DNA of 64,000 bases from Hormiphora californensis. Its lineage: Eukaryota; Animalia; Ctenophora. Under the pieces are notes generated by a model. That model ran no database searches and was not told where the DNA came from. It was given only the letters and a program-made list of their open reading frames with translations. Within the stretch, counting starts at the first letter, position 1. Each line of letters opens with the position of its first letter. The stretch spans positions 8,370,001-8,434,000 of the forward strand of contig CM035353.1 in NCBI GenBank assembly GCA_020137815.1. The letters are read 5' to 3'. This document shows, in pieces, positions 55,301 to 58,300 of the stretch. A program made the translations under genes and the position numbers.

Positions 55301-58300
55301 CCCCTCGGTTTGAGCACATTCCAGGGAAGGTACCCCTGGTAACTACTCACCGTGAGGTCGATCTCTTTCTGCGTCTCAGGGTCCACTATCTTGATCCTCC
55401 TATTCTGTCGGGGTGCAGGGGCCTGTTTTTGAGGGGCTGGTTGGGGCTGCTGGGGAGCCACTTGGGGTTGTTGTGACTGGGGCTGCTGTTGGTGCATCGG
55501 CGGGGTAGGGGAGGAGTGGGCCGGCATCTCGAGGGAGAGAGGGGGATTAGAGATGTGTGGGGGGGGGGGAGTTAGAACTTCAACTACCACAACAAACAAT
55601 ATTCAAACACCCGGGATTAGTTCCTTGGGGAAAACAGATAATAAAAAGACAGGTGTTAGTGGGGGTGTAAAAATATAAAAAAGGTACAGTTTATACAATT
55701 TATTCACACTGTACAATGTCCCTTCACCGCCACTCGCTGTCATATCTTCACCCTCCCTCCATAGGGGGTGTTGGTCGTGGTTTGACCATAACACTGACCC
55801 TACACAACATCACCGCAGTAGACAGAGCAGTATCCCAACTCTCCAACTTGCTACACCCCTCATCTAGCACCTCCTCCTCCTCTTCACAGTCACTGTTCCT
55901 GGTTATAAGGTGGGAAACACTCTGGAACACCCTCCCCAACCCATCCAACACTACCCTACACGTTAGTTCATCCAACACCCCATGCCCCTCCATCTGGTGG
56001 GGTGAGGGTTGGAAGGATGCCAACAACTCCCCACATATCCTCTCTGTTACCCCACCACCTGGTAACACACACCCATCACGATGTGTCACCATCCCCTGCT
56101 TCGTGATTCTTTCTTTCTGCTTCGTGTCACCCACAATGTTATGCATCTTCTCTGATATCCTCTGAAACCGGGCCACACACCCTGTGTCACTAGGTCTCCG
56201 TAGTAGGAGAGTGGAACTATCGGGTAAAAGGATCTGGATGTGACCCTCTGAGGGAGGGGTGTCTCCCAGCTCCACCTCCAGGACATCTTGTGGTGTTGCA
56301 AAGCTCACACAGGGTAGTGGATCACGAGAGAAGTGGTGGGCGATGTGTTGTGCAATATCAAATGGCACTCTCTCCACCACTGTGACGTCAGAGTATGACG
56401 TCATGATACCAGTACACAGTATAAGGGTAACCCCCAGATCAGGATCCTGCTGGGTCTCTCCTGCTGTCCCTTTCTTGGTGATCACATGTTGCTCCTTGAC
56501 AATCCCTCTGTATCCGATATGAGGGGTGGGGGAGGATGAAACGTCACCTGTTACAACAAGCACCCTGTATCGACCCTTCAGTGGAGGAGTAGAGGAAGGG
56601 ATGAGGATACCAGGAACTAGAACAGATTCCTCGAAACCCTTTTCAAATGTGATGTGTAGTTTATGGTTTGGTGAAGATAGTAGGGAGGTAGGGATAAATT
56701 GTGCCTCAGTAAAACCCCGTGCAAGACCTCTGGTAACCCTATCAATATGATGTTCCCCTCTCTGTAGTTCATTATATCCTGCAATTAACTCTTCCCTACA
56801 GTGAGACAGGGCCATGCCAATAACCCCATGACATGTCTCAACCTCTATACCATGTTCCTTCACACACTCCTGGATAAATGTCACCAGTCTACACGTCCAC
56901 ACCACAGCAGTTCTACTGTTCAACCCAGCCAATATCTCTACAAAGGGTTCCCGTTTAGTGTGACATGACAAGATGGTGGGTAGATGGGAGGTAGCGCCGG
57001 TGTTACCGCTGGGGAGCACTAGACGGTGAGAGGTGCCGTAGAGTCGATCTGCTAGTGGTTGGAATGTTGCTAGATCGGAGAGGTATGTTGGTGGTAGGAG
57101 GAGAGACATGGGCTACAAACAGGGGGGACACTGTTGGTATAACAATAACTGGGGTCTGGGGGTTCCAAACAGTTAACACAAGTTAACAGTCAACACAAGT
57201 TTACACAACACAACTTAAAACCCACTTTAACACAAGTAAATACAACTTCAACACAGATTTAGTACTTACAGATGGGGGCCCAGCTATGTGTGGGTTCTGA
57301 TACATGAATGGTGCTTGGGGCATATGGCCGTACTGCGGTAAATATCCTGCAGCCGCGTGACCCGCTAACTGGTAATTGTACATCTAGGGAGGAGGGGGGG
57401 GGGGGGTTAGGGTCGGAACTAGGAGAATTGTGATGTACCTGATGTTAACAAGATAAACAAATCGATATAACGGTACTAAACCAATAATTTGATGTACCTG
57501 TGCCTGAGCTGCCTGCCTGTCGTTGAATCCTGCTGCTGGGTGACCGTATGCTCCTGGGTATTGCGCGTACTGCCCGAACGCTGCATAACCCATCTGCCTG
57601 AGGAAGGGATTAGAGATTAGAGACGTGGGGGGAATGGGAGATTAGAGACAGGGGTTGGGAAGGGAGGGTGTCTATCGGGGGGACTGAGAGTATGCAGTGT
57701 TATGGCAATGGTAACCATGGAGCTAGGAGGGAGAGAGAGAGTGAGAGAGAGTGAGAGAGAGTAAGGGGAGAGAGAGAGGGAGCAGTTGCAACACAGGGCG
57801 GGAATATAAGGGGTGTCTTGGCGGGAGCGAGACCCCACTACATATTTTGCTTGTTAAACAGCACGTGTATATGACTGGGTGTGACCTCCACCAAGTGACG
57901 TAACCGATCGACTTTCCGTTGCAGCAGCAGTGTGAAATGTCCCCATTCTCTCGCAGGTCACGTGACTTGGTGGTTCGACCAATCAAATGTTAGCATTGGT
58001 TGGAGCAAATGCGCGCCGTGGTTGGCTTTCCAGCGGGTTGGAGGTTGCCGCGCGCTACGCAAAGCACAATACGACGCGGCAAATGTGTGACCGACACCCT
58101 CCCGACACCAACCAAATACCAAGGCACACATCCTATCTCTACCTACCTCTCTCAATTTCAAGTGTCACATGACACAGTCACATACCACACCGAGCTAGCC
58201 TTATCAGGGGGTGGGGTGGGTCTCACCAGAGATATGGAATTGGGAAAGGGTGAGGTAAGTGGGGCAAAAGTCGAAAACGGGACGAAAACTCAATGGAACA

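Follow-up and report, generated by a model that had tools for sequence, protein, structure and literature searches.

An intact gene with a single exon, coding for a divergent chaperonin of group II and likely the orthologue of BBS12, lies in the sense orientation inside what our gene model gives as intron 3 of eIF4G in the ctenophore Hormiphora californensis, and we tentatively propose that it shares the eIF4G pre-mRNA, from which spliced-leader addition at an acceptor directly ahead of its start codon (AG at 57114-57113) would free a stand-alone mRNA. The window analyzed is a stretch of 64,000 nucleotides (contig CM035353.1, assembly GCA_020137815.1), to which all coordinates refer; its main features are collected in Table 1.

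Table 1. Features of the eIF4G locus and of the gene nested in its third intron.
Feature	Position	Strand	Basis
eIF4G exon 1, putative; ATG directly after the acceptor AG	58411..58457	-	phase, splice sites
CpG-rich promoter-like island, intron 1	57800..58099		CpG scan; function inferred from composition
eIF4G exon 2, putative; ATG 4 nt in	57498..57597	-	match to P. bachei model P0002
eIF4G exon 3, putative; ATG directly after the acceptor AG, phase 0 end	57270..57383	-	phase, splice sites
Donor GTAAGT of eIF4G intron 3, phase 0	57264..57269	-	sequence
U/G-rich tract poor in C (46% T, 25% G, 7% C)	57163..57263	-	composition
3' acceptor-like site whose AG stands 3 nt from the ATG; candidate for leader trans-splicing or for cis-splicing	57113..57126	-	matrix
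Nested single-exon ORF, 453 aa, BBS12-like divergent group II chaperonin	55748..57109	-	ORF, homology, fold
AATAAA, 44 nt past the stop; poly(A) signal predicted for the nested gene	55699..55704	-	motif scan
eIF4G exon 4; ATG directly after the acceptor AG; strong acceptor with branch motifs	55351..55527	-	acceptor scoring
eIF4G exons 5-23 with MIF4G, MA3 and W2	43318..55187	-	domain scans; contigs of RNA run X1 bridge exons

The host gene and its 5' exons

Judged by its domain content, the host of the nested ORF is eIF4G: the domains MIF4G, MA3 and W2 were matched in this order by seven of the 11 eIF4G exons scanned, and a PDB search with one host exon returned eIF4G as its best matches. The gene model comprises 23 exons encoding 1446 aa and keeps phase throughout, apart from an apparent 1-nt slip in exon 12. 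This MIF4G exon (47630-47481, minus strand) has no open frame, the slip falls near 47590-47600, and a contig of RNA run X1 carries extra letters at the same site; an assembly error is likely. The run comes from a relative at about 80-88% identity and bridges the 3' eIF4G exons; it gave no cover at 54205-58480, and none over exons 1-7 or the nested ORF.

Exons 1-3 are assigned to eIF4G on phase, splice sites and composition, and should be read as putative. Exon 2 is identical to the N-terminus of the Pleurobrachia bachei gene model P0002 at 28 of 32 residues (88%), and when exon 4 was used to look for longer proteins, none of 142 candidates was a homologue linking exon 3 to exon 4. Exon 4 contains a stretch that we take to be PABP-binding-like; neither the exon domain scan nor the PDB search with exon 4 supported it. 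The four 5' exons starting at 58457, 57597, 57383 and 55527 (minus strand) each have an in-frame ATG at the acceptor or 4 nt past it, and among exons 5-23 exon 11 is the only one with an ATG within its first 10 nt. Alternative leader addition at these exons would allow N-terminally nested eIF4G isoforms, although in a Met-rich region the pattern is a post-hoc hint.

Several further features of the window were recorded. Within eIF4G intron 7 (54148-49532, minus strand; 4.6 kb), several hydrophobic minus-strand ORF pieces follow acceptor-like sites, and an AATAAA stands at 50785; the intron possibly harbors another nested gene. None of 19 pieces taken from the two strands matched Pfam above cut-off. 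Long, near-perfect, MITE-like inverted repeats occur at 49920-49560, 45340-44700, 18430-18380, 17100-16930 and 11300-10390, several of them within introns. The strongest CpG island of the window (40350-41250, observed/expected ratio 1.5-2.0) is probably the promoter of a neighboring gene.

An intact reading frame within the modeled intron 3

The nested ORF runs uninterrupted on the minus strand from an ATG at 57109 to a stop codon at 55750-55748, and in the gene model it lies wholly within intron 3 (57269-55528, 1742 nt), on the strand of its host. In 1000 base shuffles of the ORF the longest reading frame reached 281 codons (mean 110), so that its 453 codons are far beyond chance. The layout described in the sequence-only reading was borne out in all its coordinates: an intact 453-aa sense ORF in an eIF4G intron, an upstream exon ending in phase 0 at 57270, a GTAAGT donor at 57269, an acceptor AG 3 nt from the ATG, and a short gap between exon 3 and the ORF, the donor-to-acceptor distance being 157 nt.

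Downstream of the predicted poly(A) signal is a T-rich run at about 55682-55669. The hexamer AATAAA does not occur in the 4441 nt of the 20 eIF4G introns other than 3 and 7, and eIF4G exon 4 starts 177 nt past the copy that follows the nested gene. Between this AATAAA and exon 4 there is a further AG at 55625-55624 (minus strand), which has a CTAAC branch motif some 37 nt upstream of it. Considered as the start of a microexon, it scores low (2.5-3.1), and the frame behind it runs into a stop unless splicing were to use a poor donor.

A HMMER search with the nested ORF found eight relatives at E <= 0.001, five of them below 1e-10. The closest are two P. bachei gene models, 82% and 86% identical, and a further relative carries the label Mnemiopsis leidyi. 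The ATG of the ORF aligns with the start methionine of stand-alone relatives (e.g. P0006, P0008, P0014 and P0023), which suggests initiation at 57109. In three other relatives, P0005, P0013 and P0007, the extensions before the aligned methionine share a stretch resembling a translated intron end, a hint that an acceptor may stand right before the start codon in other ctenophores too.

That the ORF is a decaying or silent retrocopy, spliced out together with intron 3, is a reading to which we give very little credence. It could draw on the state of the protein, which shows more erosion than its relatives do: several segments that they retain are absent from it, among these about 10 aa ahead of the P-loop position as well as the apical Trp helix. 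The protein alone also has no Pfam or PDB match. Against this, all 453 codons are open, the indels relative to the two P. bachei models keep the frame, the AATAAA is in place, and the coding region of human BBS12 likewise consists of one exon.

The nested protein as a likely, divergent BBS12

Membership in the group II chaperonins (PF00118), proposed from the sequence alone, was reached through the relatives and a family profile, whereas the ORF by itself gave no match in either Pfam or the PDB. Among nine relatives scanned against PF00118, six matched, two of these above the curated cut-off, and three did not. With a best E of 8.6e-16, positions 35-460 of a 12-sequence profile matched group II chaperonins, and all of the best 60 of its 91 matches were chaperonins. 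In the Atlas, the nested protein adjoins PF00118 clusters at 0.91-0.93, under cluster names that read hypothetical, MKKS fragment and TCP-1. A structure model of modest quality (pLDDT 57.9, pTM 0.55) resembled TRiC and thermosome chains (E 5e-10, TM 0.36-0.43); the single-sequence model (pLDDT 35) was unusable. Relatives, profile and fold thus agree on a group II chaperonin.

By the criteria for canonical CCT/TRiC subunits taken from PMC2846930, the nested protein is not one of them, because neither the Gly-Asp-Gly-Thr motif for hydrolysis (GCGGRT in the relatives; GLNSRT in the nested ORF at the first motif) nor the Gly-Pro ATP-binding dipeptide (GT, GS or AS-like at this position) is kept. 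The suggestion that it is BBS12-like was strengthened by an alignment with human MKKS, BBS10 and BBS12 (PMC2846930), made by eye, which favors BBS12. The ctenophore family agrees by eye with BBS12, and not with MKKS or BBS10, in four blocks: (i) the LSHG helix end, (ii) the apical entry GD..H.G[FY], (iii) an apical Trp helix, seen in the relatives only and not in the window protein, and (iv) the C-terminal YD...K..[AS]W..A. The second block and the C-terminal helix with its Trp are the clearest, and an N-terminal YG..RL stretch is as close to MKKS as to BBS12. The human genes have one (BBS12), two (BBS10) and four (MKKS) coding exons according to passages of PMC2846930 and PMC5534436; the nested ORF has the single coding exon of BBS12.

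Altogether, we think it likely, on alignment and gene structure, that the nested gene is a BBS12 orthologue. With BBS12 it shares the group II chaperonin fold, the single coding exon, an unrecognizable ATP-hydrolysis motif and blocks in the intermediate, apical and C-terminal regions, and it differs in length (453 aa against 710, the long vertebrate insertion being absent), in the missing Gly-Pro dipeptide and in the equally MKKS-like N-terminal stretch. BBS12 binds BBS6/BBS7 and CCT in BBSome assembly. By analogy with BBS12 as portrayed in parts of PMC5534436, we predict that the nested protein serves BBSome assembly as a non-ATPase adaptor. Among the matches listed in our literature search we found no paper covering both BBS12 and ctenophores.

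Probable conservation of the nesting and the case for a fusion protein

The P. bachei model P0002 consists of the 32 residues that match exon 2 followed by the ORF orthologue (82%), which it enters at residue 158. In P. bachei, too, the orthologue thus very probably has this upstream exon ahead of it on its own strand, and the conservation of the nesting that had been put forward as a check on the locus finds its support in this one gene model. Two metagenome scans gave no related locus, in 180 and 216 stretches respectively.

Gene models of the P0002 type in P. bachei are largely predicted. Read as a real fusion transcript, P0002 would skip exon 3 and the first 157 residues of the ORF, and with them a third of the fold, through an AG whose counterpart in the window scores -0.3; we did not accept it as such, and it looks like a prediction artefact. 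The combined fraction of Q, Y, P, G and A in the first 60 aa is 0.52 in P0002 and 0.15-0.27 in the other 22 relatives, which come from distant species and are probably ORF calls. None of these 22 has an eIF4G-like leader, but relatives that, as these appear to be, are ORF-called would not reveal spliced fusions if their contigs are genomic.

These data bear on a further reading, in which exon 3 would be cis-spliced to 57112 and the ORF would serve as an alternative last exon. The sequence-only reading had presented this as an in-frame fusion of the eIF4G N-terminus with the chaperonin. Joining exon 3 to 57112 does give an open frame of 541 aa with no stop; what it would place ahead of the whole chaperonin is an 87-aa, low-complexity leader rich in Gln, Ala, Gly, Tyr and Pro, and no eIF4G domain, so that the product would in effect be a BBS12 extended at its N-terminus. 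Such splicing would be easy, because a spacing of 157 nt is ordinary for this gene (16 of the 22 eIF4G introns are of <=165 nt) and the donor is a consensus one, and among eight upstream AGs 57113 is the only site that is both in phase 0 and open. P0002, with exon 2 fused to the ORF, could be counted on the same side if it were not so artefact-like. On the other hand, an in-frame match of donor and acceptor is a one-in-three chance event, the leader is missing from the 22 distant relatives, and no 541-aa fusion was found in searches over the size ranges 249-793 and 112-1036 aa, with about 8000 candidates scored in each. We therefore regard the fusion as rather unlikely as the main product of the locus.

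Splice and promoter signals ahead of the nested gene

The strength of the 57113 acceptor was assessed with matrices trained on the 22 eIF4G acceptors, with 1060 other AGs as comparison. On a 14-nt matrix it scores above eight of the 22 true acceptors, and 27 of the 1060 other AGs score as high; on a 25-nt matrix it exceeds just three of the 22, with 88 of the 1060 as high. It is, on these scores, a plausible acceptor of middling strength. No YTRAY branch motif lies within 60 nt of it, while 17 of the 22 cis acceptors have one; the acceptor before exon 1 is likewise without this motif. Among the 22 introns, T+G content over the first 100 nt is highest in intron 3 (0.71; next 0.66).

Two copies of the published H. 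californensis leader are present in the window, near 15923 and 19627 (15960-15918 and 19665-19627, minus strand). No GT donor follows either copy. The first stands at the head of a stretch resembling the end of a LINE reverse transcriptase together with a 221-aa ORF (15289-14624), the second forms the center of a long inverted repeat, and both are probably retroposed leader-bearing RNAs. Leaders are reported on at least 56% of Hormiphora Iso-Seq long reads (PMC8527503), and with leaders common in the lineage and copies of the leader in the window, trans-splicing of this kind is plausible.

As for the promoter, the closest island of promoter-like character precedes exons 2-3 and stands 700-950 nt upstream of the 57113 acceptor. 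It contains 22 CpG (observed/expected ratio 1.03, against a window median of 0.54), a CCAAT, two CACGTG and a CRE-like motif, and its position favors the suggested coupling of the nested gene to the eIF4G promoter. A promoter of the nested gene's own, in exon 3 or in the first 150 nt of intron 3 and independent of eIF4G transcription, is a possible though less than probable alternative. RNA from such a promoter would start behind the donor and would be either trans-spliced at 57113 or left with a short, unspliced 5' UTR. Passages of PMC3890989 and PMC13309782 present an own promoter as the usual state of nested genes, and a start behind the donor would take away the cis competitor (compare PMC12582326). 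The 160 nt before the start codon (57269-57110) are free of ATG (P = 0.14 by dinucleotide and 0.04 by base shuffling), a property shared by five of 17 short introns. Weighing weakly against an own promoter, the same 160 nt hold no CpG, none of the scanned promoter motifs, a set without ctenophore core promoters, occurs in 57480-57110, and the island lies upstream.

Discussion

The explanation that we consider best, while granting it somewhat less than an even chance, is that the BBS12-like gene shares the eIF4G pre-mRNA and is set free by leader trans-splicing at 57113. The nested ORF would be carried within the eIF4G pre-mRNA, and the outcome would be decided at 57113 for each transcript. Where the site is ignored, intron 3 would be removed as a whole and eIF4G mRNA would result; where it is taken by the leader, the ORF would become the terminal exon, the upstream exons would be discarded, and 3' cleavage past the AATAAA at 55704 would complete a stand-alone BBS12 mRNA. 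Cis-splicing to the same AG might then be a leak, tolerated because it keeps the frame.

Shared transcription is favored because of the position of the island, the retained start methionine, the heavy use of leaders and a flatworm precedent, and the U/G-rich start of intron 3 and the lack of a usual cis branch motif at 57113 speak for it as well. In flatworms, internal acceptors are described as trans-spliced despite a donor upstream (PMC5832876), and trans-splicing is described as outcompeting cis-splicing where polycistrons are resolved (PMC12582326). Several points stand against it. First, a consensus donor lies just 157 nt upstream and the acceptor is middling. In addition, internal trans-splicing is tied to long introns or internal promoters in the part of PMC5832876 that treats it, and cis-splicing could therefore win at 57113. 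Besides, no operons had been reported in ctenophores as of 2021, according to passages of PMC7986045, and the same-strand nested genes of Drosophila are described as being processed at poly(A) signals of their own, with the host reading through them (PMC3890989), a separate processing that fits separate transcription units and thus goes against shared transcription. Finally, the island's promoter role is inferred from its composition alone.

Exon 4 begins with an ATG directly after its acceptor, 177 nt past the AATAAA, so that BBS12 and a short eIF4G could arise from one transcript. The locus would then be an operon hidden in a gene: its pre-mRNA would yield full-length eIF4G where intron 3 is spliced out, or else would receive one leader at 57113 and another at the exon 4 acceptor and be cleaved near 55680, and the short eIF4G would have 1359 aa with all domains kept. 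We think this extension improbable.

The RBM12 coding exon sits in an intron of CPNE1. As at the eIF4G locus under shared transcription, one promoter there yields two unrelated proteins by alternative processing, in an arrangement conserved across species, and more than 20 promoter-sharing pairs are given for human (PMC2568002). The difference is that the exons shared by CPNE1 and RBM12 are 5' UTR joined in cis, whereas the upstream exons of eIF4G code, so that a stand-alone BBS12 would need trans-splicing or a second promoter. The leader acceptors and operons of flatworms and nematodes, as described in passages of PMC5832876, PMC12582326 and PMC7986045, have in common with this locus a short spacing from poly(A) signal to next acceptor and, in the reading we favor, trans-splicing behind a donor; they are tandem genes, not a gene within a coding intron.

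The nesting as such is less surprising than the sequence-only reading had made it, since 2357 nested genes in 1654 hosts, many of them parallel, are published for H. californensis along with the abundance of leaders (PMC8527503), and same-strand cases are described there as common; the layout is thus ordinary for the lineage. Its relatives and the leader sequence place our locus in the same family of animals; the processing of parallel pairs is left open in the passages concerned, and the locus is not named in them. No paper on the eIF4G/BBS12 pair was found among the matches listed, passages of PMC12221973 did not bear on the locus, and the nested-gene supplement for Hormiphora may include it. 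Elsewhere, a share of about 10% of exonic bases lying in nested genes is regarded as normal across animal phyla (PMC10282587), nested pairs in mammals have the same orientation roughly as often as the opposite one (PMC11694760), and H13/Mcts2 is described as a case of interference at nested loci (PMC13309782).

In itself, then, the locus is modest news, with a layout that is common in its lineage. What it contributes is a very divergent, probable ctenophore BBS12 that escapes Pfam, together with one host/nested pair that is probably conserved, and its value is that of a test case: in a short, mapped locus, three routes are told apart by a leader junction, a cis junction or an internal start. 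The processing route, not the layout, is what could be new. If shared transcription holds, a leader junction on a transcript from the eIF4G promoter would point to operon-like processing in comb jellies, and if the locus were in addition an operon hidden in a gene, it would give the ctenophores a polycistronic unit, and would serve as a model for the expression of the many parallel nested genes of comb jellies.
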